From Nannocystis bainbridge (GTDB taxonomy: Bacteria; Myxococcota_A; Polyangia; Nannocystales; Nannocystaceae), in the NCBI RefSeq assembly GCF_028368995.1, contig NZ_JAQNDL010000001.1, forward strand, positions 384,001 through 448,000: DNA of 64,000 bases, read 5' to 3'. The translations under genes were made by a program, and so were the position numbers. The notes under the pieces were generated by a model, which worked only from the letters and a program-made list of their open reading frames with translations, was not told the origin of the DNA and did not search any database. The first letter of the stretch is position 1; each line of letters starts with the position of its first letter. Below are positions 4,523 to 50,601 of this stretch, piece by piece.

Positions 4523-6586
4523 TCACCCCCCGCAGCCGATCGGATAGCCCCCGCGCGGCCCCGCTGCGACCTCCGTCGCCGTGAACCCCGAGGTCCCGTC
4601 GCAGCGCGCCCGCCACAGCTGCGGCCTCGTCGCGGGCGCGTGCCACAGCACATCGTCGCAGCCGTCGCCGTCGAAGTCGCCCACGCACGTCGTCGCCTCG
4701 CCCGGCGGCGTCGGCACCGGCACGCGCTCGATCGCTGGCCCTCGCATCCGCCACAGCCATGCGCGCTCCGGCTCTGCCGACCACCACAGCGCCTCGTCTG
4801 CCCCGTCGCCGTCGAAATCGCCGACCTCCATCCGCGCCAGCAGGTCGCCCGCGCCCTCGCTGCGCGACCACCCGGACGCCACGCAATTGCCGTCCTCGCC
4901 CCACAGCCGGTCCGGATGCCAGCGCACCGTCGCCTGCGCCCGCGGGTCCCACCACAGCGCCTCGTCCACCCCGTCGCCGTCGAAATCGCCGACGCGACCG
5001 ACCTGCTCTTCGCCCGGGCGCAGCCCGCACGCCGGCAGACCTGACCGTTGCAACATGTCCCTCGAGTCATCTCCGAACGCCCACAGATCGACCGCGAACC
5101 GCTGCGCGTCGAGCCACAGCACCTGGCTGCGGCGCGCCCCCGATCCGCGACCCGGCGTCCACAGCCCCACCAGCGGCCAGCCGTAGCCGGCCGCGAAGCG
5201 GTCGTCGAGCGGCTCGTCCTCCACCCCGCCCGCGCGCCAGACCCACCGCGCGTCGACCTCCGCGCCTGGCCGCCACCACCACACCGCGTCGCCGCCGTCG
5301 CCCGCGAACGCCCCCACGATCGGCGCCGCGCTGCCCGGCGCCGCCACCCGCGTGCGCACGAAGCCCCCGCGACCCTGCGCCGGCGGCTGCCACAGCTCGT
5401 CCGTGATCTCCTCCGGCCCGAACATCAGCACCTCGGTCCGCCCGTCCGCGCCTGCCAGCGCCACCGGCCGCCACGAGCGCGGCGCCCGGCTCGGGCACGG
5501 CCCGTCGCGCATGCAAAGGCTGAACGTGCGCCGCGCGAACCGCCCCGCCGGCCCGCCGTACCACACCTCGTACGTCTCGCCCCCCGGCTGAAACCACACC
5601 ACGTCCTCGCGCCCGTCGCCGTCGACATCCACGCGCGAGCGCGGCAGCGCGTAGAGGATCGCCGCGCCCAGGCGATCGCCGCGCGACAGCCGGCCCTGCT
5701 TGCTGGCCGCCGAGATGCCCGGGCAGCGCGCGTCGCCCATCACCGACGCCGGATCGGGGTACGTCAGCCCGCGGAACTCGGTCGAGGCCGCGTCGACGCA
5801 GATCTCCCGCGACTGCTCGAACCGCGAGTGCTCGTGCACGAACCCCAGCAGGTGCCCGAGCTCGTGCAGCACCACCATCTCGGGCGAGTACATCTCGCTC
5901 ACCAGCGCCTCCGGCCACACCAGCAGCCGCGCCCCCTCGTCCTCCGGCGCCGTCGCCGGGAACGACGCCGACGCCAGCGGGCACCCGCTCGCCCCGCACT
6001 CCGCCGCCGCCCCCTGGCGCACCGTGAACGCCACCTGCTCCGGCGCTGCGCAGGCCGGAGTCCCGTCGAGCTCGGCGCGGTGGATGAAGTTCACCCCTGA
6101 CGCCCGCTCCCACTGCGCCGTCGCCAGCGTCAGCGCCGCGCGCGTGCGGGCCAGCAGCGCCCGGTCGGCGAACTCGCCCAGGCAGTACGCCAGGTCGAGC
6201 TTGCGCCCCACGTCCCACGCGCGGTCGAGCGTCCCGCGGCACTTGACCGCGCTGCGGTACGCTGTCTCTTCCGACATGTCCGAAAAACCATGTCCCGACG
6301 GCAGCAGGATGTCGCCCTCGATCCGCAGCCCGCCGCCGACCAGCACCTCGGGCGCCTCGCCGCCGCAGACCCCGTCGTCGGCCACCAGCGCCGCGCCCTC
6401 GCAGCCGCCGGCGAGCGCCCCCAGAGCCAGCGCCAGGGCCCGCCCCGCGCGCCAGCGGCCGCGCGCCAGCGCCAGCGCGGCGACCTCTGCCAGCAGCGCG
6501 CCCCGGTCCGACCGCTCCACTCGCCTTGCGATGCCCGACCCGGGGCACCCGTGCAACCCGTCGCCGTCACGCTCCCCGCGGCCCAC
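4523..6586 (-). CDS. Zinc metalloprotease (metzincin/M57-like) lipoprotein with FG-GAP repeats; start uncertain
   Basis: HELGHLLGFVH zinc motif, SVM Met-turn, IEGDI propeptide, several GDFDGDGxD repeats. Confidence 0.82.
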   Translation of the reverse strand: MGRGERDGDGLHGCPGSGIARRVERSDRGALLAEVAALALARGRWRAGRALALALGALAGGCEGAALVADDGVCGGEAPEVLVGGGLRIEGDILLPSGHGFSDMSEETAYRSAVKCRGTLDRAWDVGRKLDLAYCLGEFADRALLARTRAALTLATAQWERASGVNFIHRAELDGTPACAAPEQVAFTVRQGAAAECGASGCPLASASFPATAPEDEGARLLVWPEALVSEMYSPEMVVLHELGHLLGFVHEHSRFEQSREICVDAASTEFRGLTYPDPASVMGDARCPGISAASKQGRLSRGDRLGAAILYALPRSRVDVDGDGREDVVWFQPGGETYEVWYGGPAGRFARRTFSLCMRDGPCPSRAPRSWRPVALAGADGRTEVLMFGPEEITDELWQPPAQGRGGFVRTRVAAPGSAAPIVGAFAGDGGDAVWWWRPGAEVDARWVWRAGGVEDEPLDDRFAAGYGWPLVGLWTPGRGSGARRSQVLWLDAQRFAVDLWAFGDDSRDMLQRSGLPACGLRPGEEQVGRVGDFDGDGVDEALWWDPRAQATVRWHPDRLWGEDGNCVASGWSRSEGAGDLLARMEVGDFDGDGADEALWWSAEPERAWLWRMRGPAIERVPVPTPPGEATTCVGDFDGDGCDDVLWHAPATRPQLWRARCDGTSGFTATEVAAGPRGGYPIGCGG

Positions 6587-6784
6587 CCTCCAGGTCCCCG
6601 GCCGCCCGCGCGCCCGCGAGCGCCGAGATCTCGGGCCCGCCTCTCCACCTGTCCTGAACGACCTGTCCCATCCGCCAGCCGACGCGAATTCGGCGCCGCG
6701 CCGACGCCCCTATCGAGCCCTCCGCCCGCGCGCCCGCGGCACGCGAACAGGCGGCCCGCGCTCGCGCCGGCCGCCCGACCTTTC

Positions 6785-6868
6785 GGACCTGCCCCTTCGG
6801 GCCTGTCCCTTCAGACCTGCCCCCGGAGACCTGCCCTTTCGGACCTGTCCCCTGGGACCTGCCCGAAC
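6785..6868. repeat. 14-bp-period array, 6 units (RGACCTGYCC-N4)
   Basis: CCTG cores at 6788, 6802, 6816, 6830, 6844, 6858; an extra pair at 6648/6662. Confidence 0.92.
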
Positions 6869-14998: not shown

Positions 14999-16141
14999 GT
15001 GGCACAACGGCTCGTCGTCCTCGCCCTCGGCGCCGCGTTCGCAACGACCGGCTGCAGCGACGACTGCGGCGACAGCGAGTACCACGACGCCGAGATCTGT
15101 TTTAAGGAACATGTCCTCGAGGTCCAGTCCGAGGCCGCCAGTCCCCTCGCCTTGCGCGCGGCCGACTTCGACGGCGACGGCCTCGACGACCTCCTTATCG
15201 TCGGCGCCGCTGCCGGCACCATCACCACCGACTTGCGGCGCGGCGACGGCGACGGCGGCCTCGGCGAGCCGCGCGACGTCGGCGTCGCCGGCTGCAGCGC
15301 CTATCCAGTGGTCGGCGACCTCGACCTCGACGGCGCCGCCGACCTCCTGTTCCCCAGCTGCGACGGCGGCGTGTTCGTCTACCGGGCCGACGGCGCCGGC
15401 GGCTTCGCGGCGCCCGTCGAGGTCCCTGTCGGCCTCAAGATCCGCACCACCGCCGTCACCGACGTCGACGGCGACGGCCGCCGCGACCTGCTTGTCCTCG
15501 GGGACATGTCCGAAAAGCCAGCCATCAGCCTCGTCCGGGCCGACGCCGCTGGCGGCTTCGCCCCGCCGGAGGTCCAGCCCCTGTTCGTGCCCGGCCTCGA
15601 AGACCTCGATCCTGGCGGCTTCGTCGCCGGTCGCCTGCGCCGCGACGGCCCGGTCGAGCTTGTCCTCGCCGAGTGGGACCGCAGCGACGGCCTCGCGCGC
15701 GCCACCATCACCGCCGGCGCCATCGGGCCGTTCGTCGCCATGACCACCGGCCTGCGCCCCGGCGCCCTCCACCTGCGCGACCTCGACGACGACGACATCC
15801 TCGACGTCCTCGTCCTCGACACCGCCCCGGTCGCCCTCGCCCCGCTGCTCGGGCCCGACCTGTCCGAAGGGCCACGTACCGCCCTCGGCTCGCGCCCCGG
15901 CCCGATCGCCCTCGCCCACCTCGACGGCGACGGCAGCCTCGACGCCGTGCTGTTCCACGGCGACCGCCTCGGCCTGTGGCGCGGCGTCGGCGACGGTCGC
16001 TTCACCGCCGCGATCCAGCTCGAGTTCTCGACCGACGTCGTCGAGGTCGTGCTGCCCGATCTCAACGCCGATGGCCGGGCCGACATCGTCGCCGGCCTGT
16101 TCCCCGACGGCGGCCTCGCCATCCGCCTCAGCGGCCCCTGA
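14999..16141 (+). CDS. FG-GAP/VCBS repeat lipoprotein
   Basis: TTGC lipobox; repeated DxDGDGxxD. Confidence 0.85.
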   Translation: MAQRLVVLALGAAFATTGCSDDCGDSEYHDAEICFKEHVLEVQSEAASPLALRAADFDGDGLDDLLIVGAAAGTITTDLRRGDGDGGLGEPRDVGVAGCSAYPVVGDLDLDGAADLLFPSCDGGVFVYRADGAGGFAAPVEVPVGLKIRTTAVTDVDGDGRRDLLVLGDMSEKPAISLVRADAAGGFAPPEVQPLFVPGLEDLDPGGFVAGRLRRDGPVELVLAEWDRSDGLARATITAGAIGPFVAMTTGLRPGALHLRDLDDDDILDVLVLDTAPVALAPLLGPDLSEGPRTALGSRPGPIALAHLDGDGSLDAVLFHGDRLGLWRGVGDGRFTAAIQLEFSTDVVEVVLPDLNADGRADIVAGLFPDGGLAIRLSGP

Positions 16142-16842: not shown

Positions 16843-16905
16843 GGACATGCCCCCGGGGACATGCCCCCGGGGACATGCCCGCCGGGGCATGTCCTCCGGG
16901 ACACC
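16843..16905. repeat. 14-bp-period array, 5 units (GGACATGCCCCCGG)
   Basis: Cores at 16846, 16860, 16874, 16888, 16902; fills the gap between convergent stops. Confidence 0.93.
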
Positions 16906-23171: not shown

Positions 23172-26100
23172 GTGCCGCCCGTGATCGCCTTCGCCGCCGT
23201 GCTCGTCGCGTTCGCGCGGCGCTGGCACGTGCGCTGCGGCCCGCTCGCCTGCGCCGAGTCGCTCGCCCTCGTCGCCGCCGTCGCGCTCGGCGGGCTCGGC
23301 CTGCTCGCCGCGCTGCTGGCCGTCGCCGGCATCTTCTCGGCCCCGTCGTTCTCGTTCACCGCGTTCGCCCTGGCGGTCCTCGCCTGGCCTTGGGGACAGC
23401 GAGCGCCCGCGCGCCGCACCGCCCGCGACCTGCCGCGCGCCGCCGGCCTGCTCGCGCTGCTGCTCGTCGCCGCCGCCCTGCGCTGGCCGCCGATCCCCGC
23501 CGACCTCGGCGGCCGCGATCAGGGCACCTACGTGCTCCGCGCCCGCCACACCCTGCGCACCGGCCGGACCGGCCACACCGACCCGGTCCTCGCCCGCGCC
23601 GGCGCCGAGGCCGAGCTGCGACCTGGCCCCGGGGACATCCTCGGCCTCTACCACGCCGATCGCAGCCCCGCCCGCGTCGGCCGCTACGAGGGCGCCTATC
23701 GCCCCGGCTTTTACCTCACCCGCCGCGACGACGGCGAGGTCGTGCCGCAGTTCCTGCACCTCCACCCGTCGCTGCTGGCGCTGTTCGGCCTGGTCTTTGG
23801 GCCATGGTCGATGGGACTGGTCGCACCGCTCGCCGGCGTGCTCTCGGCGCTCGCGCTGTGGGCCCTCGGCGAGCGCCTGTGGCCGCGCGCCGGCGCCTCG
23901 TGGCTGGCCGCCGGCCTGTTCACGCTGTCGCCGATCGCCGTGTGGACCGCCCGCACCCCGCTCACCGAGTCACTCACCGGCCTGCTGCTGCTCGCCGCCG
24001 CCCTCGCGGTCGCCCGCGGCCTCGCATCACGCGACCCCCCCCGCGAAGCTGCCGACGCCAGCAGCGGCTCACGCACCTCCCTCCCCACGTCGGCCGCCCG
24101 CAGCTCCGATCCCGCCGCCAGCTCCGTCCCCGACGCCGCACCGCGCTCCGACCCCGCGCACGGCCTCGAGCTCACCGCCGCCCTGCTGCTCGGCCTCGCC
24201 GGCTTCGTGCGCGGCAACCTGTGGCTGTCCGCCCCGGCCCTGCTCGCCGTCCTGTGGCTGCGCCCCGGACCTGGCCCTCGCCGCATGTCCGCGCCGACCT
24301 TGCTGCTCGGTCTGCTGCTCGCCAGCCTCGCGCTCCACCTCGCCACCGGGTACCCGTACCTTCACGACGAGTTCAAGCGCCAGCTCGGCCCCGTCGCCGC
24401 GCTCTCGGCCGGCGGCGCCCTCGTCCTCGGCGCCGTGGCGATCGCCATCTACCTCGCCCTCGACGCCGCCCTCGATCGCCTCCGCGGCCGCGTGCGCCGG
24501 CTCCCGCTCGTGCTCGCCGTGCTCGCCGCCCTCGGCGCTCTCGCCTGGCTGCTCCTGCGCGCCCCCGGCCCGCCGTGGAGCCGCCTCGACCCGGCGCTGC
24601 CGCTGCTCGGTGTCCCGCTCCTGCTCGCCGCCGGCCTCGGCCTGGTCGTGTTCGCCCGCCTGCGCCCCGTCGCCACCACGCCGATCGTCTGGCTGCTCGC
24701 GCTCGCCACCCTCCCCGTCACCGCCCTCGCCCTCTACGCCCAGCGCAACCTGCCCCAGGTCGGCCTCTACTACTACGGCCGCTACCTCGTGCCCGAGCTG
24801 CTGCCGGCCGCCTGCCTGCTGGCCGCACTCGCGCTCATGCATGTCCATCGGGCCATGTCCCGAAGGACCGGTCTCTCGCGACATGCGCGAAAGGTCAGCC
24901 TCGTCCTCGGCCTCGGCCTGCTGGTCGCCCAGGCCCTGCCTTACCTGCGCCACCCGGCCACCCGCCTGCAGGAGTTCGCCGGCGCCGAGCGGCTGATCGA
25001 CGACCTCGCCGCCGAGCTGCCCGAGCGCGCCGTCGTGCTCGCCGGCGGCGAGGGCTGGCACCACGTCCACGTGTTCAGCCAGCTGGGCGGCGCGCTCGCC
25101 TTCGGCCACGGCCGCACCGTCCTGCCCTACCGCAGCCGCGAGGCCGCCTACGCCGCGCTTCACGAGCTCCTCGTCGCCGGGCCCGCCGCCAGCGGCGACG
25201 ATCCGCCGCCCGTCTACCTCCTGCTGGGCGAGGCCACCCACCCGCTGCGCCTGCCCGGCCAGGCCGCCCCGCTCGCGCTCGTCGACGACCTCCTGCCGCC
25301 GCCGTTCGTCGCCCGTCCTGTCGCCTTCGCCGAGCTCTACCTCGACCGCCTCACCCCCGTCGATGACCGGCTCCCCGACCGCGTCACCCGCACCGACCTG
25401 CGCGTCGGCCTGCTCGAGGTCCGCGTCGACCCGGCCCGGCGCGCCGCCGTCCGCAGCTGGCGGATCGACGCCGGCCGCGCCGTCGGACCTGGCCCTTTGA
25501 ACCTGTCCTCTTATTACTTGCCCGACGGACAGACCTGCCTCGACCTCGAGCACCCGCTGGTCCTCGACCTCCCGCCCGGCGACGGCCCCGGCTCGCTCGT
25601 GCTCGTCGCCCAGCCCGGCGGCGACACCCCCGCCTGGCGGATCGTCGTCGACGGTCAGCCCGTCGCCCTCGATCCGCCTGGCCCCGGCCCCGCGCGCGCC
25701 CGCGACACTCTCGGCCCGATCGCCTTCGCTGCGCCCCCGCGCCGCGTCGAGCTGTGGGGCAGCCCCCGCCCGCGCGACGACCTCGCCTGCCCTCACGGCG
25801 GTCTCGCCGAGGTCCGCCTGCTCGGCCCCGATCGCGGCCCCGACGAACCCACCCCGGCCTGGGCCCGCACCTACAGCCCGCCGCACGACCTCGGCCACCG
25901 CGTCACCCCGGCCCGCTTCGCCCCCGGCCGGGCCCTCACGCGCCTGCGCTCCGGCCTGGACCGCGCCCGCGAGCTCGACGGCCCCTCGCTGGTGGTCCGC
26001 GCCGGCGACCCGCTGACCTTCCCCATCGAACATGTCCCGAGCGCCAGCTCGATCAGCCTCGCCGTGACCCTCCGCGGCACTCGCCTGAGCCCGTCCGGCC

Positions 26101-26300
26101 GCGTGCGCGTGCTCGCCGACGACGCGCTGCTGCTCGAGCTCGACCCCCCCGACGAGCAGCCCGGCGTGTGGCACTCGCCGCCGACGAGCGTCGCCCTGCC
26201 TGGCCCGGCCCCGCGGCTGCGGGTGGAAGTCCACGATCCCGAGCGCCCCGACGCCCACGTCGCCGTCCGCGACCTGGTGCTGTTCGCCACGCCCGACTGA
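23172..26300 (+). CDS. Multi-TM membrane protein, GT-C/PMT-like glycosyltransferase
   Basis: DQGTY loop motif, VPQF, R..LTE, YYGRYLVP, many TM helices, C-terminal beta domains. Confidence 0.7.
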   Translation: MPPVIAFAAVLVAFARRWHVRCGPLACAESLALVAAVALGGLGLLAALLAVAGIFSAPSFSFTAFALAVLAWPWGQRAPARRTARDLPRAAGLLALLLVAAALRWPPIPADLGGRDQGTYVLRARHTLRTGRTGHTDPVLARAGAEAELRPGPGDILGLYHADRSPARVGRYEGAYRPGFYLTRRDDGEVVPQFLHLHPSLLALFGLVFGPWSMGLVAPLAGVLSALALWALGERLWPRAGASWLAAGLFTLSPIAVWTARTPLTESLTGLLLLAAALAVARGLASRDPPREAADASSGSRTSLPTSAARSSDPAASSVPDAAPRSDPAHGLELTAALLLGLAGFVRGNLWLSAPALLAVLWLRPGPGPRRMSAPTLLLGLLLASLALHLATGYPYLHDEFKRQLGPVAALSAGGALVLGAVAIAIYLALDAALDRLRGRVRRLPLVLAVLAALGALAWLLLRAPGPPWSRLDPALPLLGVPLLLAAGLGLVVFARLRPVATTPIVWLLALATLPVTALALYAQRNLPQVGLYYYGRYLVPELLPAACLLAALALMHVHRAMSRRTGLSRHARKVSLVLGLGLLVAQALPYLRHPATRLQEFAGAERLIDDLAAELPERAVVLAGGEGWHHVHVFSQLGGALAFGHGRTVLPYRSREAAYAALHELLVAGPAASGDDPPPVYLLLGEATHPLRLPGQAAPLALVDDLLPPPFVARPVAFAELYLDRLTPVDDRLPDRVTRTDLRVGLLEVRVDPARRAAVRSWRIDAGRAVGPGPLNLSSYYLPDGQTCLDLEHPLVLDLPPGDGPGSLVLVAQPGGDTPAWRIVVDGQPVALDPPGPGPARARDTLGPIAFAAPPRRVELWGSPRPRDDLACPHGGLAEVRLLGPDRGPDEPTPAWARTYSPPHDLGHRVTPARFAPGRALTRLRSGLDRARELDGPSLVVRAGDPLTFPIEHVPSASSISLAVTLRGTRLSPSGRVRVLADDALLLELDPPDEQPGVWHSPPTSVALPGPAPRLRVEVHDPERPDAHVAVRDLVLFATPD

Positions 26301-26374: not shown

Positions 26375-26677
26375 ATGTTCCGCCCGACCCCCCTCAAGCT
26401 GATCCTCGGCCTCGTGCTGGTCGGCGCCACCTACTTCGTGGCCGCCAACTCGCACATGGACATCTTCCCCTGCAAGAAGACCCGCGAGGACCTGGTAACC
26501 CGTCGCCTCGTGACCGACGAGTCCACCTGCAGCATCCTGCAGACCCACGGCGACTACTACCAGCCGCCGGAGAGCGCCAAGCTCACCGAGGCCGGCTGGG
26601 CCACCGCCGTGGTCGTGATCGGCCTGGTCCCCCTGCTGCTCGGCTTCGCCATCGGCTCCCGCTTCTCGAAGAAGTGA
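26375..26677 (+). CDS. Small two-TM membrane protein
   Basis: Two hydrophobic helices flanking a Cys-pair loop; strong GC3. Confidence 0.75.
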   Translation: MFRPTPLKLILGLVLVGATYFVAANSHMDIFPCKKTREDLVTRRLVTDESTCSILQTHGDYYQPPESAKLTEAGWATAVVVIGLVPLLLGFAIGSRFSKK

Positions 26678-26752
26678 GCCTGCCCTCGAGGACATGCCTG
26701 AACGGACATGTCCCCTTCGCCATGCCCGATCGGGCATGTCCCTTCAGACATC
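26676..26752. repeat. 14-bp-period array, 6 units
   Basis: Cores at 26679, 26693, 26707, 26721, 26735, 26749 between convergent genes. Confidence 0.92.
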
Positions 26753-29132: not shown

Positions 29133-30821
<1,689 letters not shown>

Positions 30822-31725: not shown

Positions 31726-31818
31726 GCGCCTGTACGATCGCACATGCACGAAGGGGCAGGTCCCGAAGTACCTGCCCCTTTCGCCATGGCCCGAGGGACA
31801 TGCCCTCGCGGACAGCCG
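31726..31818. repeat. 14-bp-period array, 7 units
   Basis: Cores at 31729, 31743, 31757, 31771, 31785, 31799, 31813; an extra pair at 31641/31655. Confidence 0.9.
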
Positions 31819-36723: not shown

Positions 36724-39168
36724 TCACCTGCCCGCGCGCGCCAACTTGCGCGCGCAGGCTACCAGCGCCAGGTAGCAGCCTGCCCCGATCGCCATCGTCG
36801 TCGAGATGCCCCACGTCATGGATGTCCCGAGGGCCAGGCCGCTCGCGCACACTCCGAACGCCCCGTTGATGCCCCACAGCCACGGCGTCACCGCGTGACC
36901 GCCTGCCCTTTCGACCAGGCGCAGCCCCAGCGGGAAGCAGATGCCCATCCCCACCGCGGGCGGCGCGATGAGGGCGATCGACAGCAGCACGCGGATCGTC
37001 GTCTCGGCGCCGGCGAAGTTCTCCGTCACCGGGCCGGTCGCCAGCCGGGCCGCCACCACCATCAGCGCCGGGATCAGCGGGAACAGCCACGCCACGGCCC
37101 CTCCGCGCTCGACCGCCAGCTTGCCGCTGAGCAGGCTACCGATGCCCGCCGACAGGATGATGCCGCCGAGCACCACCGCCAGCGACAGCGTCGGGTGGCC
37201 GACGAACACCCCCACCTGGGACAGCAGCGCGATCTCGACGAACATGAAGCCGAGGCCGATCAGCGCGAAGTAGGCCAGCGCCGCCGCCAGCGTCGCCGGG
37301 GCCAGCCCCGTCGTCGGCTCGCTCGCTCGGCTCACCTCGGTCTGCGCCGGCCGGGCCACCAGCGGCCCGAGCAGCGCCGCCAGCGTCAGCAGCAGGCTCA
37401 CCAGCGTCGCGTACACCAGCGTCTGCGTCGCCTGCAGGTTGCCGAGGAACCCGAGATCGAGCTCGCTGAGCTCCTCCTGGCCTTCGAGCCAGGTGCCCGG
37501 CTTCAGCATGTTGAAGAAGAACGGCCGGTCGTCGGTCGGCGGCGTCAGGTCGAGCGTCTGGCGCTCGGCCCACTGCCACAGCGTCGCCCGGTCTTCGATC
37601 GCCCCCAGCTCCGCCAGCAGCGGCTGGGCTGGCAGGCGACGCGGCGTCAGCACCATGTTGACGCCGATCCGGACCGCCTCGCGCTGCATCAGGTCGAGGT
37701 CGTCCGCGGTGAACGGCGTCGGCGAGACCAGCAGCGTCGCCACGCTCTCGACCTGCAGCAGCAGCAGGTGCGCGCGCGGCTTCTCGACCCCGAGCTGCCA
37801 CAGCGCCTCCATCGCCAGCGCCACCATGCGCGCCGTCTCGCCGGGCGACTCCTTCTTGTACCAGCGCGACACCGTGAACACCCCCGTGGGTGCCAGGCGG
37901 CGCAGGAACACCAGCCAGCCCTCGACCGTGTACAGCCCGTTCTCCGACAGGCTGTACGCGCCGGCGCCGGTCGAGGCCCACGTGTCGATCAGCGACATCG
38001 TGATCACCTCGTACTGCCGGTCGTCGCGCGAGAAGAAGCTGCGCGCCTCGTCGGTGTGCAGCTCGACGCCCGGGCGCGCCGCGATGGTCGAGAAGTCCGC
38101 CATCGACCGCCGGTGCAGGTCGACGATCGCCGCGTTGAGCTCGACCCCGACCACCGGCGCGTGGCCGCTGCGCAGCGCCGCCAGCACGTCGCGACCGCCG
38201 CCGACCCCGATCACCGCCGCTGGCCCGTGCGGGCGCAGGCGGTGGGCGAACGTGCTGAGGTCCCAGTCGAGGTACGCGTGATCCGAACCTGCCCCTTCGG
38301 CCATCAGCGTCGCCGCCGCGCCGTCGATCTTCAGCACTCGCTGCTGGATCGGCGCCCGCGCCTCGAGCGGCATGTTGCGCCCCGGCGCCCACAGGTACGG
38401 CGGCAGCGCGATCTGGGTCCCGACCGTCACCCGCGAGTGCGTGTTCCAGGCCACGTGCATGAACTCGCGCGGGTCCTCGCGCACCCCCTTGACCCACGCC
38501 GGGCGCAGCGGCGGCGCCTCGGCGGCCGCGTTGAAGCCGGCGAACCCCAGCAGCGCCAGCGTCAGCGCGCCACATGTCCCGAGGGACCTGCGCTTTTCGC
38601 CAGGGTCTTCGTCACATGTCGCAAAGGCCAGGGCGCCGAGCGCCGCGATCGCCCCGACCACCAGCACCGCGCTGGCGGCGTCGACCACGTCGAGCAGCGG
38701 GATCACCAGCCCGCAGCCGGCCGCCGCGCCGAGCAGGTCGCAGCCGTAGGCGCGGCCCGGAGGCAGCCCGGCGCGCGTCAGCGCCAGCGTCAGCGCCACC
38801 CCGGCGGCCGCGAACGGGACCGCCAGGGCCGCGCCGAAGCCGAGCAGGGCGAAGAAGCCCATCAGGTCGATGACCGGCAGCAGCGGCCCCGACATCGTCC
38901 ACGCGACCGCCAGCGGGGCCAGCGCGGCGAACAGCGCCGAGCTGCGGGCCAGCCGGCGCATCACCGTCGCCTGGGTGAACCGGGCCGGGCGCATGAACAC
39001 GTAGATCGAGCCCGCGGTCATGCCGAGCATCGCCAGCGCGATGACGAAGAACGACAGGTGGTACCACGCGATCACGCTGGTGATGCGGGTCAGCAAGATC
39101 TCGAGCGCGAGCGTCGAGCCCGCGACCAGGGCGATCCCGGCGTAGAGGAAGAACGAGCGCATCGGCAT
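36724..39168 (-). CDS. Membrane-embedded spermidine-synthase-like SAM-binding protein
   Basis: TGATG overlap with the acylase stop; TM blocks flanking IGVGGGRD/GVELN; SENGLYTVE, TDDRPFF, WGING. Confidence 0.85.
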   Translation of the reverse strand: MPMRSFFLYAGIALVAGSTLALEILLTRITSVIAWYHLSFFVIALAMLGMTAGSIYVFMRPARFTQATVMRRLARSSALFAALAPLAVAWTMSGPLLPVIDLMGFFALLGFGAALAVPFAAAGVALTLALTRAGLPPGRAYGCDLLGAAAGCGLVIPLLDVVDAASAVLVVGAIAALGALAFATCDEDPGEKRRSLGTCGALTLALLGFAGFNAAAEAPPLRPAWVKGVREDPREFMHVAWNTHSRVTVGTQIALPPYLWAPGRNMPLEARAPIQQRVLKIDGAAATLMAEGAGSDHAYLDWDLSTFAHRLRPHGPAAVIGVGGGRDVLAALRSGHAPVVGVELNAAIVDLHRRSMADFSTIAARPGVELHTDEARSFFSRDDRQYEVITMSLIDTWASTGAGAYSLSENGLYTVEGWLVFLRRLAPTGVFTVSRWYKKESPGETARMVALAMEALWQLGVEKPRAHLLLLQVESVATLLVSPTPFTADDLDLMQREAVRIGVNMVLTPRRLPAQPLLAELGAIEDRATLWQWAERQTLDLTPPTDDRPFFFNMLKPGTWLEGQEELSELDLGFLGNLQATQTLVYATLVSLLLTLAALLGPLVARPAQTEVSRASEPTTGLAPATLAAALAYFALIGLGFMFVEIALLSQVGVFVGHPTLSLAVVLGGIILSAGIGSLLSGKLAVERGGAVAWLFPLIPALMVVAARLATGPVTENFAGAETTIRVLLSIALIAPPAVGMGICFPLGLRLVERAGGHAVTPWLWGINGAFGVCASGLALGTSMTWGISTTMAIGAGCYLALVACARKLARAGR

Positions 39169-41621
39169 CACCTGCCCTCGACCACGGTCTCGTGCAGGTT
39201 GGGGTCGGCGGCGATGTCGGCCTCGCGGAACAGCAGCGGTCGCCATTGCTTCTGCGAGAACAGCTCGGTCTGGTCGCGGAAGTGGGGCGAGCGCGGGTCC
39301 TCCGACTGCGAGTACGTCAAGAACGCCTCGCCGCGCGGCCCGTCGGGCAGCATCTCGACCGCCATCACGAACGACGAGCCGTAGTTGATCACGTAGCCGC
39401 GCTCCGTAAGGCCGGCGGTGCCGTCGATCGCCGGCGGGCGCCCGACCTTCGGCAGCAGCGTCGAGTTGAGGCCGCCGTTGTAGCCGACCACGTTGGCGAT
39501 GCCCTCCTTGGCGAACCCGCCGTGGACCCCGATCTCGACGCTGCCGCGCGGCGCTCGCTGCAGCTGCTTGAGCGGGGCCGACAGCGGCACCCCGGCGGTC
39601 CGCAGGTTGACCACCGCCTCGCCGAGCGCCACCAGGGCCCCGTCGACCTGGCCCGCGGCCGGGGCGATCAGCGTGTGCGGGGTGTGGACCGGGTCGTCGA
39701 CGTCGAACGGCACGTTGAACAGCGAGCCGCGGTCGAGCACCGAGTCGGGGCCATAGGCCGCCAGGTACTCGCGGAACAGCACCGCGCCGACGCTGTCGGG
39801 GTCGAAGCGGCGGTCCCACGCGCCGAGCAGCTGGCAGATCGTGCGCAGGTCGACGACGCTGCCGGCGACCTCGATCACGTGTTGCGCGTCGCAGCGGGCC
39901 AGCAAGGCGTCCAGCACCAGCTCCGCGGTCAGCGAGTGGTTGCCCTGGATCGCCGCCTGGATCTCCGCCAGCGAGAACGTGCCGTCCTCGCCGGCCGCCA
40001 CGAACGGCGCCTCGTTCTGCAGCAGCATCGCGTTGACGCGCGTGCGCGGCGACTGCGGCGCGCGCTCCGCCCCGTGCAGCGGCGAGAAGCCCTCGAGCGG
40101 CGCCGCCGGGTTGGCCAGCCAGTACGAGTCGTTGGCGTTGAGCACGAAGTCGCGGCGGCCCAGCTGCGGCATCGCCGAGAACGGCACCAGCCCCGGCGCG
40201 CGCGCGTCCCCGCTGTCCTGCCACTCGTAGCTGGAGTCGCTGCCGTCGAGCACCACCAGGCCGCCCTGCTGGTACAGCAGCCCGGTGAGGAAATCGCTCT
40301 CGATCGCCGCCTGCCAGCCGGCGATCGCCGCCTCGGTGATCTGCCCGGTCGCCGAGGCGTCGGCGTACCACGCGTCGCCGTGCTTGTCGGCCGCCATCGT
40401 GTTGACCCACGGGATGCCCTGCACCGTCTTGAACACCTGCTTGAACCCGTCGAGGCTGGTCGCGCGGTCCATGCCGAGGAACTGCTCGATGAGCCGCGGG
40501 TTGTCGATGTTGGCGTCGCGGTAGGTCAGCGCGAGGTCGCCGGACCAGCCGATCGGGTCGACGTTGAGCATCGGCCCGTAATGGCTGTACCACATCGTGC
40601 GCGACACCTTGCCCTCGCCTGCGACCTCGGCCTCGAAGGTCTTGGCGGTCATCGGCCGCGAGGCACCGTCGTACAGGTAGGCCGTCGGATCGTCCGGGTC
40701 GAGCGTCAACTTGTAGAACGTGAAGCGCGTGCCCGACGAGAACGTGTGCGTCCACGCGACCTCGTCGTTGAAGCCGATCAGCACCCCGGGCACGCCCATC
40801 AGGCCGACGCCGTAGATGTTGAGCTGCCCCGGCACCGTCACGTGGCTCTCCCACAGCTTGAGCTCGCCGGTCCACGGGAAGTGCGGGTTGGCCACGACCA
40901 TGCCGCCGCCGCTGGTCGTCTTCTCGGCGCCGAGGGCCCAGCCGTTGCTGCCGAAGCCGCCGCTCGTCAGCGTGCCGAGGCCCGCGAGCGGCCCGCCCGG
41001 CAGCTGCAGCGGCGACCCCGGCGGCTGGGCCGTGCCGATGTAGCCCGCCAGCTGATTGCTGCTGCCGAGCAGCCCGAGGTCGACGTAATAACGGGCCAGG
41101 TCGAGCGCGTCGATCTCCTTGACCCACGGCGCCCCGGCGCAGTCGGCCGGCAGCTGCCCCGGCGGCGTATCGCGCAGGTACTGGTTGTAGCCGGCCGCGT
41201 AGCCCTCGATCGCCGTCTTGACCTCGGCAGGCGCCGCGTCCCACATCCGCTGCGCCCGCGGCCCGACCTCGAGCGCGAGGTAGGCGAAGTCGCTGGTCAG
41301 GAACGCGTCGCCGCTGCCGCGCCCGAAGTACTTGGCGCGCTCCGAGCGGACCTTGACGATCTGATCGGCCAGCGTGCACACGTGGTCCTGCGCGAACGCG
41401 TAGGCCTGGCCGAACAGCGCGCTGCCGAGATCGTCGGCCTGGATGTGGGCGATGCCGAAGCTGGTGCGCCGGATCGTCGCTCGATAGGCCGGCTCGCCGG
41501 AGGTCTCGCTCGTGCTCCCGTCACCTGTCGAGCTCGCTCCGTCCGTCTCAGTGTGGGGGGCGTCGGTCGAACCGCAGGCGAACAGCGGGGCGAGCGCGAG
41601 GACGGCGAACTTGCGCAACAT
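39168..41621 (-). CDS. Penicillin/AHL acylase (Ntn-hydrolase S45, PvdQ-like) lipoprotein
   Basis: LFAC lipobox, IRRTSFGIAHI, G|SNGWALG nucleophile, ANPHFPW, PWVNT, NANDSYW, TYSQS. Confidence 0.92.
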   Translation of the reverse strand: MLRKFAVLALAPLFACGSTDAPHTETDGASSTGDGSTSETSGEPAYRATIRRTSFGIAHIQADDLGSALFGQAYAFAQDHVCTLADQIVKVRSERAKYFGRGSGDAFLTSDFAYLALEVGPRAQRMWDAAPAEVKTAIEGYAAGYNQYLRDTPPGQLPADCAGAPWVKEIDALDLARYYVDLGLLGSSNQLAGYIGTAQPPGSPLQLPGGPLAGLGTLTSGGFGSNGWALGAEKTTSGGGMVVANPHFPWTGELKLWESHVTVPGQLNIYGVGLMGVPGVLIGFNDEVAWTHTFSSGTRFTFYKLTLDPDDPTAYLYDGASRPMTAKTFEAEVAGEGKVSRTMWYSHYGPMLNVDPIGWSGDLALTYRDANIDNPRLIEQFLGMDRATSLDGFKQVFKTVQGIPWVNTMAADKHGDAWYADASATGQITEAAIAGWQAAIESDFLTGLLYQQGGLVVLDGSDSSYEWQDSGDARAPGLVPFSAMPQLGRRDFVLNANDSYWLANPAAPLEGFSPLHGAERAPQSPRTRVNAMLLQNEAPFVAAGEDGTFSLAEIQAAIQGNHSLTAELVLDALLARCDAQHVIEVAGSVVDLRTICQLLGAWDRRFDPDSVGAVLFREYLAAYGPDSVLDRGSLFNVPFDVDDPVHTPHTLIAPAAGQVDGALVALGEAVVNLRTAGVPLSAPLKQLQRAPRGSVEIGVHGGFAKEGIANVVGYNGGLNSTLLPKVGRPPAIDGTAGLTERGYVINYGSSFVMAVEMLPDGPRGEAFLTYSQSEDPRSPHFRDQTELFSQKQWRPLLFREADIAADPNLHETVVEGR

Positions 41622-47689: not shown

Positions 47690-47770
47690 CCGCCTGGCCT
47701 CGGGGGCATGTCCCGATGGACATGCCCATGCAGACATGCCCCGGAGAGCATGTCCCGAGGGACCTGTCGT

Positions 47771-48976: not shown

Positions 48977-49197
48977 CGCCACGCACGGCGCAACCGGCGA
49001 TGGCCGCGACGTCGCGCCGACGCGGCGCCCCGGACACGCGTCCCGACGCGGCGCTCGATCGAGGGATCATGACACTCCAGGATCGCATCCAGGAGCCGCT
49101 GGTGCCGCTGCGGCGACCCCCGCGCGCGGGCGCACTGGCGACGCGGGCGCGGACCTGTGAACGGCGTTGCGTCCCGAGCTACCTTGAGCCCCCGCGT

Positions 49198-50601
49198 ATG
49201 CCCCACACCGTCGCTCCCCCGGTCGAGCTCTCCATGTCGACCGCGAACATCCTGGCCACGGTCTTCACCGGGCTCGCCGAGGCCCGCAACGAGGTCGAGA
49301 TGCTCGGGGCTGCGCTCGTCTACCTGCGCCCGCTCGGCCCGTTCGCCGTCAACCTCCACCTCACCACCGTGTTCGAGGACGGCGTCCCGGTCCTGGCTCG
49401 CCACGTCGCCCAGTGGTTCGAGGCCGCCGGCCTCGCGGCCACCGACGGCGAGATCGACCTCCGCTCGCACCTCTCGATCTCGCAGCTCTGGTACGACCAG
49501 GCCGCGCCGGTGTTCCTCGAGGACATCGCCGCCGACCCGCGCTGCGACGCCGTCTACCGCGAGTTCATCATCAGCCACGGCATCCGCGCCCAGGTGTTCT
49601 TGCCGCTGCACAGCGAGGCCGCCGGCCGGGTCATCGGCGTCGTCGTGGCCCACTTCGGCGCGCCGCGGACGTTCACCAGCGAGGAGCGATATGTCCTCAA
49701 GACCCTGTCCTTCGGGCTAGCCTCGTTCCTCGCCGGCCGCCGCCTGCTGGCCGAGCGCGAGGAGTCGCTGCGCCAGGTCGAGCGCCAGCGGCGGATGTTG
49801 ACCGCCGTGCTCGAGAACCTGCCGGTCGGCGTCTACCTGGCCGAGGCCGGCACCCACAAGCCGCTGCTCGCCAACCAGATCGGCGTCGAGACCATGGGCA
49901 AGCAGCGCGTCGAGGCCGACGGCCGCGTCTACTACGAGGCCTACACGATGTATCAGACCGGCACGCTCGACCCGGTCCCCTTCTCGGAGCTGCCGCTCTA
50001 CCGCACCCTCGCCACCGGTGACCCGCACAGCGGCGTGATCGACGTGCGCAGCCTCGACGAGAGCGTCGGCATCGTCACCCTCGAGCTCTCGGCCGCCCCC
50101 GTGCGCGACGAGAGCGGCGAGATGTTCGCCGCCGTGGTCGTCTACCTCGACGTCACCGGCCGCAACCGCGCCGAGGCCGAGCGCGCCGCGATCCGCGAGG
50201 AGCTGATCCGCACCCAGGCCCAGGCGCTGGCCGAGCGCTCGACCCCGCTGATCCCGCTCGGCGACGACGTCGTCGCCATGCCGATCGTCGGCACCCTCGA
50301 CGGCAGCCGCGCCGACCAGATCATCGAGGTCCTCCTCGAGGGCTGCGCCGCCCGCAAGGCCCGCCACGCGATCCTCGACATCACCGGCGTCCCGCACGCC
50401 GACACCGCCGTCGCCGGCGCCCTCCTGCGCGCCGCCGCGGCCGTCCGCCTCCTCGGCGTCGAACCGATCCTCACCGGCATCCGCCCCGACGTCGCCCGCA
50501 CCCTCGTCGGCCTCGACGTCGACCTGCGCGGCGTCGTCACCCTGCCGACGCTGCAAGAAGGCATCGCCCACGCCGCGCGCAAGGCCCCGCGCCGCCGCTG
50601 A
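49198..50601 (+). CDS. GAF-PAS-STAS (RsbR-like) protein
   Basis: GAF-like region, PAS (LENLPVGV..APVRD..G), STAS STPLIP..PIVG.LD..RA..DITGV..TGIRP. Confidence 0.87.
   Translation: MPHTVAPPVELSMSTANILATVFTGLAEARNEVEMLGAALVYLRPLGPFAVNLHLTTVFEDGVPVLARHVAQWFEAAGLAATDGEIDLRSHLSISQLWYDQAAPVFLEDIAADPRCDAVYREFIISHGIRAQVFLPLHSEAAGRVIGVVVAHFGAPRTFTSEERYVLKTLSFGLASFLAGRRLLAEREESLRQVERQRRMLTAVLENLPVGVYLAEAGTHKPLLANQIGVETMGKQRVEADGRVYYEAYTMYQTGTLDPVPFSELPLYRTLATGDPHSGVIDVRSLDESVGIVTLELSAAPVRDESGEMFAAVVVYLDVTGRNRAEAERAAIREELIRTQAQALAERSTPLIPLGDDVVAMPIVGTLDGSRADQIIEVLLEGCAARKARHAILDITGVPHADTAVAGALLRAAAAVRLLGVEPILTGIRPDVARTLVGLDVDLRGVVTLPTLQEGIAHAARKAPRRR

Follow-up and report, generated by a model that had tools for sequence, protein, structure and literature searches.

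A genus-specific 14-bp palindrome lattice at gene 3' ends in Nannocystis and its in-frame copies within coding sequences

The stretch of Nannocystis bainbridge DNA analysed here (64,000 nucleotides, referred to as the window) contains runs of a short palindrome repeated with a 14-bp period, both between genes and inside them. The presence of such runs in coding sequence raises the question of whether they constitute a second code, comparable to HIP1 or DNA uptake sequences (DUS), that is maintained at a set density and overrides codon bias, as a sequence-only reading of the locus proposed, or whether they have some other origin. The explanation favoured here, to which a probability of roughly 0.55 is assigned, is that the lattice is not a second code with even spacing but a genus-specific family of REP-like 3' hairpin elements, whose intragenic members are old, in-frame copies residing in tolerant linkers.

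The repeat unit and its location at gene 3' ends

The lattice is a real repeat, composed of a 10-bp palindrome (GGRCATGYCC) and a free 4-nt spacer, with a period of exactly 14 bp. The 11-Mb Nannocystis genome contains about 2,600 lattice chains, and the distances between CATG tetranucleotides show maxima at 14, 28, 42, 56 and 70 nt (counts of 3736, 2073, 1586, 751 and 383), while other distances occur roughly 60-480 times. The palindrome GGACATGTCC is found 956 times, compared to 17-86 times for five palindromes of like composition. Units of a CCTG type (GGACCTGYCC) also occur, and copies inside genes match those between genes in unit, period and CCTG/CAGG variants. Among the genomes searched, the lattice is one family restricted to the genus Nannocystis.

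The chief location of this family is the 3' ends of genes, above all between convergent genes. Arrays of at least three units number 509 in convergent spacers (0.36 per spacer, 36% occupied), 356 in tandem spacers (0.08 per spacer), 31 in divergent spacers (0.02 per spacer) and 136 within genes, and the median distance from an array edge is 20 nt to the neighbouring stop codon and 198 nt to the neighbouring start. Intergenic arrays of the window, which like the patches listed further below are given without strand, are as follows.

1064..1115, four units between convergent genes, the usual context of the family
6785..6864, six units of the CCTG variant
16843..16894, four units occupying a whole convergent spacer, stops 7 nt and 12 nt away; RNA fold z -3.8 and -4.7
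26676..26741, five units in a convergent spacer, overlapping a stop codon; RNA fold z -4.7
31740..31805, four units in a convergent spacer; 14-bp indel in two congeners
47704..47769, five units in a convergent spacer, stops 16 nt and 2 nt away; RNA fold z -2.8 and -3.5
55328..55393, four units downstream of gene 53708-55315

Because each unit is its own reverse complement, neighbouring units would pair in transcripts, forming stems of 10 bp with the 4-nt spacer as their loop on either strand, and since such stems would be independent of strand, the arrays would act like REP/BIME-type elements, which they resemble as 3' arrays of predicted hairpins. The five intergenic array strands that were folded have z values of -2.8 to -4.7, with stems of 10 bp or more. 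At the R/Y pairs of tandem spacers, the sense strand has more G.U than A.C (251 vs 145, P=1e-7; 259 vs 142, P=5e-9), which points to RNA rather than duplex DNA. Counting against a 3'-end role, the arrays have no T-run of the kind found in canonical intrinsic terminators, and a terminator scan of 16-36 kb flagged none of the three arrays of at least four units; a canonical terminator adjoins a 2-unit array at 23095. The lattice may function as an RNA hairpin, and its arrays may serve in the protection or formation of 3' ends.

The strand bias weighs against a true second code, in which a trans-acting factor would read GGRCATGYCC units on a 14-bp DNA register by HIP1-like logic, and selection would write and keep the arrays through substitution, genes included. 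Such a factor could, for example, belong to the nucleoid, topology or condensin-related proteins and work at sites of converging transcription. We regard this alternative as unlikely, although it is the strongest competitor. A single core is in use genome-wide, which a structure-only role would not need, and covariation in the stem is weak (Watson-Crick pairing at the R/Y pair is 0.484, against 0.432 expected); together these are compatible with a sequence-specific reader. In orthologous intergenic units the CATG is 91-99% identical, compared to 49% for the spacers. Spacers are mostly locus-specific, which implies that the arrays did not arise by plain copying of one master element; sharing of spacer pairs between different loci is modest (465 vs 316). 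Adjacent spacers within one array are identical in 75 cases against 18.5 expected, which indicates local slippage. On the other side, no candidate reader protein was found, and D12 methyltransferases are not co-distributed with the lattice (25/31 genomes, 16/21 genera).

Phased copies within coding sequences

The occurrence of intragenic copies was evaluated against shuffles of synonymous codons, with all gene calls taken from one purpose-built codon-usage caller. In 51 called genes of the window (56.4 kb, 300 shuffles), phased pairs with both units scoring at least 8/10 number 6, against 0.84 in shuffles; pairs scoring at least 7 and at least 8 number 21 (5.2 in shuffles), pairs scoring at least 7 and at least 9 number 9 (0.66), and triples number 4 (0.31). 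The observed pair and triple counts were matched in 0/300 shuffles. Single units scoring at least 8/10 are not over-represented in the window's coding sequence (134, against 146 after shuffling). In the genome-wide set of 6,484 trimmed confident genes (7.54 Mb, 10 shuffles), there are 689 pairs at a distance of 14, compared to 112.4 +/- 5.9 in shuffles (6-fold), and 135 triples, compared to 7.2 (19-fold). Pairs at distances of 13 (33) and 15 (78) do not exceed the shuffle level, and the excess falls at 14 bp and its multiples. Intragenic pairs are thus well above the frequency that synonymous-codon shuffling generates. The reading in which there is no DNA-level feature, but only chance matches in GC-rich coding sequence or selected peptide motifs (DMS, GHV), draws on the absence of an excess of single units, but it is contradicted by the excess of pairs and triples over protein-preserving shuffles both in the window and genome-wide, and is very improbable.

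All 21 phased runs that had been listed as intragenic lie within ORFs accepted by the codon-usage caller. The coding frame is unbroken across the patches of genes 23172-26300 and 4523-6520, with coding potential on both sides, and Pfam supports 6/9 host proteins, while family-wide orthologues support two others. In a local test of each site (1000 shuffles each, a two- or three-unit lattice score, pass at P<=0.05), 13 of the 21 runs pass (5040, 15096, 15491, 15859, 23622, 23789, 24270, 24840, 25488, 26017, 30303, 38573 and 49690), two are borderline (6261, and 31075 with local P 0.08/0.06), and six have no support from it (23383, 28391, 35799, 36821, 36902 and 38288), a proportion that is in keeping with the reading of no DNA-level feature. 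Site 36821 encodes the peptide SGLALGTSM, which is kept in genera without the lattice and which that reading would accommodate. The runs described as having five units contain three to four scoring units each. The patches and their principal hosts are listed here, with unit scores out of 10 in brackets.

4523-6520, minus strand, gene for an FG-GAP/astacin-like protein
5037..5074, three units (7, 8, 7) in gene 4523-6520; local P 0.005 (3 units)
6272..6295, two units (9, 7) in gene 4523-6520, the site listed as 6261; borderline, local P 0.16/0.07
15107..15130, two units (9, 7) with codons TGT TTT GAA CAT, in FG-GAP gene 14999-16141; local P 0.016 (3 units)
15488..15511, two units (7, 10) in gene 14999-16141; local P 0.002
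15856..15879, two units (8, 7) in gene 14999-16141; local P 0.012
23172..26300, plus strand, gene for a 1,042-aa membrane protein, carrying most patches of the window; no Pfam match, orthologues in 18/18 family genomes searched
23619..23642, weak patch of two units (7, 8) in gene 23172-26300; local P 0.001 (2-unit score)
23786..23823, weak patch of three units (6, 7, 7) in gene 23172-26300; local P 0.031/0.0, TRF period 13
24267..24290, two units (8, 8), one CCTG-type and one CATG-type, in gene 23172-26300; local P 0.02/0.003
24837..24888, four units (8, 9, 7, 8) in gene 23172-26300, loop HVHRAMSRRTGLSRHARK between two hydrophobic segments; local P 0.006 (2 units), 0.0 (3 units)
25485..25536, CCTG-type units (8, 8, 3, 7) in gene 23172-26300, with rare codons TCT TAT TTG; local P 0.002/0.0
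26014..26037, two units (7, 9) encoding EHVP, in gene 23172-26300; local P 0.045/0.058
28388..28411, possible patch of two units (8, 8 by strict scoring) in gene 28123-28974 (minus strand); the scan window of the local test at 28391 was off the pair by 1 nt
29133..30821, plus strand, gene for a Ser/Thr protein kinase, Pkinase domain at residues 42-306
30314..30351, three units (7, 9, 9) in gene 29133-30821, in the linker 3' of the kinase domain; local P 0.017/0.001
36724..39171, minus strand, gene for a widely conserved 815-aa protein; no Pfam match
38570..38621, units (8, 8, 5, 7) in gene 36724-39171, loop between hydrophobic segments; local P 0.002
49687..49710, two units (8, 7) in GAF-PAS-STAS gene 49198-50601; local P 0.001/0.0

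Codon use, peptides and density

The patches do carry rare codons: their GC3 is 0.672 compared to 0.955, and their mean codon log-odds is -0.54 compared to +0.43 in the host genes. Among the codons that had been named as rare, TGT, TTT, GAA, CAT, TCT, TAT and TTG do make up only 1-10% of their synonymous families, but AAG (96.7%) and TAC (90.1%) are preferred codons. Every codon phase is represented among the 1,364 intragenic units (472/327/565), which argues against selected peptide motifs, although the commonest frame, with 565 units, uses the preferred codons GAC-ATG, as a peptide-level explanation would predict. Since the core has a stop codon in 0/6 frames, an array is translatable, and its product would consist of G-H-V, D-M-S and T-C-P peptides, the frame shifting with each unit. 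The peptides that patches encode have a high content of G, S and P, and the most chain-laden genes are those for kinases whose linkers are long and for an ScpA whose acidic tail is long; the intragenic copies would thus occupy fast-evolving loops, linkers and tails.

The rare codons, combined with residual self-complementarity, could instead suggest functional intragenic RNA elements, in which a weak hairpin and a rare-codon cluster hold back RNA polymerase or the ribosome in stretches that separate domains or follow membrane segments, or provide internal decay or attenuation points. The strong window patches at 24837, 38570 and 30314 do come after hydrophobic segments, but TM-like segments are not enriched near patches genome-wide (0.14-0.16 vs 0.13 at random positions in the same genes), the five intragenic patches that were folded have predicted structures no stronger than those of their shuffles (z +0.09 to -1.35), and the sense-strand G.U bias is absent from intragenic patches (33 vs 41; 39 vs 57). 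From the last two results, any constraint on the intragenic copies may not be of the RNA-hairpin type, and functional RNA elements within genes seem improbable.

The density of pairs is 0.091 per kb in coding sequence and 1.72 per kb in intergenic sequence, a 19-fold difference. There are 579 intragenic chains, in 487/6,850 confident genes (7%), and they occur at 0.16-1.05 chains per 10 kb of coding sequence, well short of the proposed spacing of one every 1-3 kb. The chains are over-dispersed, with 15 genes carrying at least three against 1.9 expected, and they do not fill gaps between intergenic chains, the median distance from intragenic to intergenic chain being 2,272 nt compared to 2,237 nt for random coding positions (P=0.95). 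Intragenic units are also poorer than intergenic ones (13% vs 19% perfect). These properties count against a DNA-level reader, and the idea of a HIP1- or DUS-like code at a set density within genes is not sustained. HIP1 is reportedly conserved within and between ORFs and tied to chromosome structure (PMC5861425), a precedent on which a second code could draw. Because the lattice lies chiefly at gene 3' ends, REP-like elements are a closer analogue than HIP1.

Conservation and origin of the intragenic copies

In about 285 kb of aligned synteny, 22/22 intragenic arrays are present at the same place in the congeners G010 and G007 with no net length change, and in the reverse direction 16/18 of the pairs called in each of these genomes score at least (7,7) in G000. 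Units still scoring at least 8 in relatives amount to 76-78% for intragenic copies, 59-62% for chance coding hits and 80-85% for intergenic copies; the retention above chance hits would also suit functional RNA elements. In the conservation test, which draws on 22 arrays with 52-55 units and yields P values between 0.01 and 0.03, the central CATG differs at 6/208 positions in two unascertained congeners, against a coding background of 6.8% (P=0.010), and at third codon positions it differs at 3/74 against 10.8% (P=0.034). Positions between units change at 2-3 times the background rate at each codon position, and the core differs at 41/518 positions compared to 30/161 between units (Fisher P=3e-4). 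The slow CATG, the three phases and the rare codons agree with the earlier view that the peptide is not what is constrained, and suggest a modest constraint on the intragenic CATG at the DNA or RNA level.

The patch at 24837..24888 is identical in length and phase in five congeners and partial in divergent Nannocystis MAGs, and that at 38570..38621 is almost unchanged across five congeners. At both sites, 38573 and 24840, the phase persists in a divergent Nannocystis lineage although the peptide differs, which is hard to reconcile with the absence of a DNA-level feature and would be expected of a second code. The patch at 30314..30351 is found in five congeners, and at 6272..6295 the cores are kept in 5/5 congeners with a different spacer in each. 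The lattice is absent at near-equal loop length from two other genera at 24837..24888, at similar loop length from other genera at 38570..38621, and at equal linker length from the divergent lineage G009/G006 and two other genera at 30314..30351. The alignment of orthologues with and without the motif, which had been proposed as a way to separate insertion from substitution, thus gave about equal loop or linker length in 4/4 patches; an origin by simple insertion is not visible, and this is what writing in place by a second code would produce.

The same comparison bears on whether the family is a miniature mobile element that is still active and inserting in frame into genes, be it a MITE, a REPIN together with its transposase or an element resembling the Rickettsia palindromic elements. 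The likeness to the Rickettsia elements, as described in PMC10969869, lies in a high-copy, palindromic, extragenic family with in-frame ORF copies, and 33 pairs of 38-mers are identical at several loci. The patches have no extra length relative to lattice-free orthologues, however, presence/absence polymorphism affects 0/22 intragenic arrays in three species at about 85-89% third-position identity, a Y1_Tnp (RAYT) gene was not found in G000 (90.5% complete), and indels at intergenic arrays are mostly of 1-5 nt, with 14-nt steps that fit slippage. The lattice family is not currently mobile, and continuing insertion is slightly less credible even than functional RNA elements within genes.

In the REP-like explanation, head-to-tail 14-bp units would be placed directly 3' of stop codons, chiefly between convergent genes, and the intragenic patches would be old, degenerate, in-frame members of this intergenic repeat family. 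Both their first entry into genes and any action they may have there are matters of inference. Their position, length and phase would have been fixed before the large-genome Nannocystis species split, and some would predate a deeper split within the genus, a modest constraint on DNA or RNA having since preserved the CATG centre as spacers and encoded peptide drifted.

Array structure and placement

The 11.05-Mb genome of N. bainbridge (71-72% G+C, 5 contigs) contains a lattice of 14-bp units, in each of which a 10-bp palindrome, GGRCATGYCC, precedes 4 bases that have no consensus and are approximately 46-50% A+T. The genome-wide distribution of distances between CATG tetranucleotides has sharp peaks at multiples of 14 nt (counts of 3736 at 14 nt, 2073 at 28, 1586 at 42, 751 at 56 and 383 at 70), compared to roughly 60-480 at non-peak distances. 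The palindrome GGACATGTCC is strongly overrepresented, with 956 genomic copies vs 17-86 for five palindromes of like composition; GGACATGCCC and its complement together have 740 copies and GGGCATGCCC has 75, and in the window a k-mer count gives 24 copies of ACATGTCC, where base composition leads one to expect 0.94. Units with CATG units on both sides have CATG at their own centre in 81% of cases, CCTG or CAGG in 6.4%, and CATT or AATG in 4.8%. Those CCTG units of the sequence-only reading that fall on the lattice are thus true variants of the unit. The window contains a six-unit array at 6785-6864 with CCTG in place of CATG (GGACCTGYCC), and the 27-bp and 42-bp tandem repeats at 21125-21317, upstream of the gene at 21446-23050, each contain a TGTCC-CCGA-GGACA hairpin unit and look like a larger repeat built around lattice half-sites.

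When units that match the palindrome at 8 or more of 10 positions are chained at 14- or 28-bp steps, 2,611 chains of 2-11 units are obtained genome-wide. TRF, which is independent of this chaining, reports period-14 arrays in the window at 1080, 6782, 16843 and 50664; it calls no intragenic copy of the lattice (or “patch”) in the window as period 14, and reports only 23787-23823, with period 13. Rfam at the gathering threshold has no match within the window. By inspection, the core is free of stop codons in all frames of both strands. No account of the 14-bp Nannocystis lattice was found in the literature searched, which left most subscription journals and supplementary files outside its scope.

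Genes were called using codon log-odds trained on 719 long ORFs with high GC3, with the best-scoring start and greedy resolution of overlaps. Every genome-wide number for intragenic units rests on this codon-usage caller, which assigns 81% of the genome to coding sequence. In the window, 6 of the 9 host proteins have a Pfam match, orthologues were found for two large host genes that have none, and frame-specific coding potential occupies a single frame on both sides of the patches, so that these are in frame within ORFs that are otherwise intact. The density of phased pairs is 1.72 per kb between called genes vs 0.091 per kb inside them, which is 19 times lower, and a seventh to a fifth of all lattice copies are inside genes.

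Arrays of at least three units by position relative to called genes
Convergent spacers: 509 arrays, 0.36 per spacer
Tandem spacers: 356 arrays, 0.08 per spacer
Divergent spacers: 31 arrays, 0.02 per spacer
Intragenic: 136 arrays
Overlapping a gene end: 11 arrays

The edge of an array lies at a median of 20 nt from the neighbouring stop codon (30 nt or less in 59% of cases) and at a median of 198 nt from the neighbouring called start. Since the 10-mer is self-complementary, neighbouring units can pair at all 10 positions. The reading preferred here, to which a probability of roughly 0.55 is attached, is that the lattice is a REP-like family, specific to the genus, whose arrays form hairpins at 3' ends, and that old in-frame members of it persist in tolerant parts of proteins. 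Neighbouring units of an array would form hairpins in the transcript, with 10-bp stems and the spacer as a tetraloop, and the stop-free core would make the in-frame copies possible.

Five strands of intergenic arrays have RNA folding z scores of -2.8 to -4.7. The best evidence that the transcript matters for the arrays is a bias on the sense strand in tandem spacers, where G.U is preferred over A.C both at the inner R/Y pair (251 vs 145, P=1e-7) and at the outer one (259 vs 142, P=5e-9). Two observations count against a purely structural role: covariation in the stems is weak, and the arrays lack a T-run, and all three arrays of at least 4 units between 16 and 36 kb (16843, 26676 and 31740) are missed by a scan for hairpin-plus-T terminators. 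The same scan finds a canonical hairpin-plus-T-run terminator at 23126-23147, directly after a 2-unit array at 23095-23118; an array and a canonical terminator therefore coexist 3' of one gene. The main rival reading, which is judged unlikely, invokes a factor that recognises the sequence of the units, together with selection that places them inside genes too. It is favoured by the uniformity of the core together with its scant covariation, while the RNA-strand bias speaks against it.

Phased units inside coding sequence

The chance expectation for units inside genes was computed from synonymous-codon shuffles that preserve each protein, with 10 shuffles of 6,484 confident genes, their two ends trimmed off (7.54 Mb), for the genome and 300 shuffles of 51 genes for the window. 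Genome-wide there are 689 pairs at a distance of 14, compared to 112.4 +/- 5.9 in the shuffles, 484 pairs with one unit scoring at least 9, compared to 43.6, and 135 triples, compared to 7.2; the corresponding pair counts are 33 vs 36.4 at a distance of 13 and 78 vs 111.6 at 15. The window follows the same pattern, with 6 pairs at scores of (8,8) vs 0.84, 21 at (7,8) vs 5.2, and 4 triples vs 0.31. Single units scoring at least 8 show no excess over the shuffles, either in the coding sequence of the genome (17,956 vs 20,165) or in the window (134 vs 146). The earlier proposal that the lattice is present inside genes above chance is thus borne out for phased runs, which do not occur at the frequency given by synonymous shuffling, and is not borne out for isolated units; that the phased runs are themselves a product of chance is one of the less likely explanations.

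The sequence-only reading had listed 21 intragenic sites, and in a local shuffle test at P<=0.05 13 of these pass, 2 are borderline and 6 fail, a result to be read with the scan windows in mind, which are narrow for claims of single minus-strand units and by which 28391, one of the six, was missed by 1 nt and its pair under-scored. At 36821, another of the six, the encoded peptide is conserved in lattice-free genera. The three runs that had been described as having five units contain just 3-4 scoring units each.

Confident genes contain 579 chains, at least one of which is present in 487 of 6,850 genes (7%), and the density of chains varies by gene length class from 0.16 to 1.05 per 10 kb of coding sequence. 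Three or more chains are found in 15 genes, where 1.9 are expected; the genes of the window hold 6 chains vs 3.9 expected. Chains are most numerous in the genes of a ScpA homologue (7 chains), a Pfam-less protein, and two Ser/Thr kinases with long linkers. The ScpA (condensin subunit) homologue, L178 (G000:C3:1270033-1273218), has more chains than any other gene, and its long acidic tail, of approximately 800 residues, contains repeated EDVL(G/E)DM(S/P) motifs. The intragenic arrays do not fill gaps in the spacing of the intergenic ones, since the median distance from intergenic chains is 2,272 nt for intragenic chains vs 2,237 nt for random coding positions (P=0.95). With chains in 7% of genes, clustered where they occur, and not displaced from intergenic chains, the lattice does not have the character of an evenly maintained code in genes that had been attributed to it. 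The rarity of units in genes, their concentration in few of them and the lack of regular spacing are further points against a factor that reads the units.

Mean codon log-odds is +0.43 in the host genes but falls to -0.54 beneath intragenic chains, and to -0.64 where these have 3 or more units, and GC3 is 0.672 in patches vs 0.955 in the training ORFs. Among the codons that had been singled out as rare, CAT, TGT, GAA, TCT, TTT, TAT and TTG are indeed rare, each with a share of 1-10% in its synonymous family, as are ACA and GGA, but AAG and TAC are actually the preferred codons of theirs (96.7% and 90.1%). All three frames are in use because the period is 14 bp: the reading frame moves by 2 per unit, and the first base of CATG falls in codon phase 0 in 472 of 1,364 units, in phase 1 in 327 and in phase 2 in 565. 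The peptide does change with each unit, as had been proposed, in a cycle of G-H-V, T-C-P and D-M-S. G, S and P are abundant in patch peptides, and the peptides differ between lineages. Across the genome, patches are not enriched next to hydrophobic segments (0.14-0.16 vs 0.13 for random positions in the same genes), which led to the rejection of the suggestion that they mark loops behind membrane segments.

The RNA of five window patches folds no better than shuffles (z from +0.09 to -1.35), intragenic pairs have no sense-strand G.U bias, and perfect units make up 13% of intragenic vs 19% of intergenic units, so that the intragenic copies are somewhat poorer. A reading in which the patches act as a pausing signal is, in view of the folding and strand results and the lack of enrichment next to hydrophobic segments, also held to be one of the less likely, although the rare codons speak for it.

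Conservation and origin among relatives

The relatives compared were Nannocystis punicea, N. pusilla, N. exedens and Nannocystis MAGs, together with other Nannocystaceae that include Enhygromyxa and Plesiocystis.

Matches to a strict two-unit pattern in Nannocystis genomes
N. bainbridge: 184 matches
Five other large Nannocystis genomes: 67-127 matches each
Five divergent or fragmentary Nannocystis MAGs: 0-15 matches each

The same pattern has no matches in the genomes searched from 8 of 8 other genera of the family and from 12 of 12 other families of the class. The 14-bp arrays of G009, a member of a divergent Nannocystis lineage, are mainly of the CCTG type, an example being the syntenic counterpart of window 31.7 kb; Nannocystis sub-lineages therefore differ in their preferred core, and the strict CATG pattern undercounts the divergent MAGs, which use more CCTG-type units. 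A generic 14-bp autocorrelation in approximately 50 kb of other genera gives 42, vs 19-41 at neighbouring distances that are not multiples of 3, and is indistinguishable from background. A search for the REP-associated tyrosine transposase (RAYT; Y1_Tnp, PF01797) has no match in the N. bainbridge genome, which is 90.5% complete, and was positive in 6 of 14 control genomes. The D12 methyltransferases (PF02086), the sole class examined, are present in 25 of 31 genomes and 16 of 21 genera, and are therefore not co-distributed with the lattice.

Syntenic DNA was compared from five congeners for the window and, over a larger region, from two congeners, G010 and G007 (approximately 480 kb each, of which approximately 285 kb can be aligned to N. 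bainbridge). The otherwise syntenic stretches of these two congeners lack a block of approximately 145 kb that N. bainbridge has approximately 70-215 kb downstream of where the window starts (G000:C1), and which could be an island or a rearrangement. Beside the GAF-PAS-STAS gene at window 49507-50628, no second copy is seen in N. bainbridge, while one that is 72-74% identical adjoins the orthologue in 5 of 5 congeners; the tandem paralogue was therefore either lost in N. bainbridge or gained in the congeners.

Intergenic arrays occupy the same place in the same register in the relatives. Between the two congeners, their CATG is 91-99% identical, their flanking GGR/YCC 69-78%, and their spacers 49%, compared to 85% for other alignable non-coding DNA. 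A clean 14-bp step between species was found in one case, an intergenic array. Adjacent spacers in an array are identical 75 times, where 18.5 are expected, which indicates slippage, while identical spacer pairs at different loci show a modest enrichment (465 vs 316 +/- 18). Arrays thus grow locally, with no stamping from a master copy; spread as an active mobile element is among the less likely accounts of the lattice.

Each of the 22 intragenic arrays in the alignment has a counterpart at the same position in G010 and in G007, with no net change in length. When pairs are called in G010 or G007 in place of N. bainbridge, the latter reaches (7,7) or more at 16 of 18 sites in either case. Units that still score at least 8 in the relatives amount to 76-78% of intragenic and 80-85% of intergenic units, vs 59-62% of isolated chance hits in coding sequence. 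Rates of change were computed between G010 and G007, neither of which had been used to find the arrays, a choice that avoids ascertainment bias. In this small sample of 22 intragenic arrays and 52-55 units, differences are found at 41 of 518 core positions vs 30 of 161 between units (Fisher P=3e-4), at 6 of 208 CATG positions over all codon positions vs 6.8% for coding sequence overall (P=0.010), and at 3 of 74 third positions within CATG vs 10.8% (P=0.034).

Between-unit positions of intragenic arrays that differ, compared to coding sequence
Codon position 1: 12.7% vs 5.5%
Codon position 2: 14.0% vs 4.2%
Codon position 3: 30.6% vs 10.8%

Because the rates between units are high and that of CATG is low, the patches represented by these 52-55 units appear to be fast-evolving protein segments in which the centre of the motif is held.

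Four patches were followed into deeper relatives: 24837 and 25485, both in the gene at 23172-26300; 30314, in the linker of a Ser/Thr kinase (29133-30821); and 38570, in the gene at 36724-39171. At 38570 the large-genome species and the divergent MAG lineage share the phase of the lattice, although the best-preserved units differ and the peptides are unrelated (TCDEDPGEKRRSLGTC vs AARTDMPAGTGRKGQV); in other Nannocystaceae the loop has no lattice and is of equal length or 3-5 residues shorter. Patch 24837 behaves similarly. Patch 30314 is present in the large-genome clade and absent, with the same linker length, in the divergent-lineage genomes G009 and G006 and in two other genera. Patch 25485 has no gain in length either; in one outgroup genus two CATG are present there at a distance of 14 nt, and the site may thus be partly driven by the peptide. 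A clean insertion was thus seen in none of the four when compared to lattice-free orthologues, which have the same length to within a few residues in poorly alignable loops, and because of this poor alignment replacement (insertion plus deletion) is indistinguishable from stepwise substitution. Both the persistence of phase across lineages despite different peptides and the lack of a visible gain in length are points in favour of a factor that reads the units. Elsewhere in the gene at 23172-26300, window 23990-24180 encodes a low-complexity linker that varies by tens of residues among congeners and is missing from more distant orthologues; it falls in the stretch of the protein (approximately residues 290-335) in which most tblastn matches break in two.

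Comparison with known systems

The lattice resembles the REP/BIME elements of enterobacteria and the REPINs of Pseudomonas in being made of short GC-rich palindromes with stem-loop potential, in hundreds to thousands of copies, and in its intergenic placement, mostly at 3' ends and convergent junctions. Roles in mRNA stabilisation, termination and supercoiling are among those that have been proposed for these elements (PMC3733652, PMC2817692), and a conserved GTAG or CGTC tetranucleotide has been described at one end of the REP palindrome (PMC3733652). Unlike REPs, which are imperfect palindromes of 20-40 bp in inverted pairs, the lattice consists of 14-bp units with perfect 10-bp palindromes that abut head to tail in strict register; it is unaccompanied by a RAYT/Y1 gene in N. 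bainbridge, the GTAG or CGTC end tag is absent from its unit consensus, GGRCATGYCC+NNNN, and its spacers are not conserved between loci. Lattice arrays are also similar to intrinsic (Rho-independent) terminators, since both place a GC-rich hairpin just 3' of a stop codon and can be bidirectional between convergent genes, but the arrays have no T-run.

In-frame residence within ORFs is shared with the Rickettsia palindromic elements (RPEs), palindromic repeats that are found in frame within unrelated protein-coding genes, where they add or replace peptide segments and leave the gene intact; RPEs are described as being approximately 150 bp long, with a conserved encoded peptide, and as appearing as insertions (PMC10969869). 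The lattice pieces differ in their length of 24-66 bp, in a peptide that changes frame from unit to unit and is not kept between lineages, and in the lack of visible added length at all four patches compared to lattice-free orthologues.

The HIP1 element of cyanobacteria occurs as isolated 8-mers. Like the lattice, it is a short palindrome that is far above expectation, is present in ORFs against codon preference, and is conserved between genomes; because the motifs oppose codon preference in ORFs and are kept between genomes, the constraint in both systems would act on the nucleic acid and not on the peptide. HIP1 (GCGATCGC) has been reported to exceed one motif per gene in some cases and to be conserved both within and between ORFs (PMC5861425), and orphan methyltransferases have been linked to it (PMC4390886). 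The lattice does not approach one motif per gene or a similar abundance within and between ORFs, since its chains are found in 487 of 6,850 genes; it also differs from HIP1 in forming phased tandem arrays that are 19 times rarer in genes than between them and are clustered at stop codons. The DNA uptake sequences (DUS/USS) of Neisseria and the Pasteurellaceae are likewise short, overrepresented and present within genes too; when paired in inverted orientation they can also serve as terminator hairpins. They are asymmetric single motifs tied to natural competence, whereas the lattice unit is palindromic, tandem and phased at 14 bp.

A further proposal, which is offered tentatively and is more probably wrong than right, is that the lattice is an undescribed Nannocystis-specific signal: a phased 14-bp stop-free GGRCATGYCC lattice that is read by a dedicated trans-acting factor, selected at more than a third of convergent junctions, and also substituted without change of length into tolerant coding sequence, in which it prevails over codon usage and persists longer than the encoded peptide.

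If the reading holds, Nannocystis would provide a clean natural case of an element that acts at the level of the nucleic acid while sharing a reading frame with protein, and because the core is stop-free in six frames and the 14-bp period uses all three, the pull of the motif and the pull of the protein could be separated site by site. Because arrays are present at more than a third of convergent junctions, they can guide the annotation of 3' ends and of operon boundaries in genomes that, like these, are large and rich in natural products, and since the arrays would travel with cloned genes, the lattice would also matter for heterologous expression.
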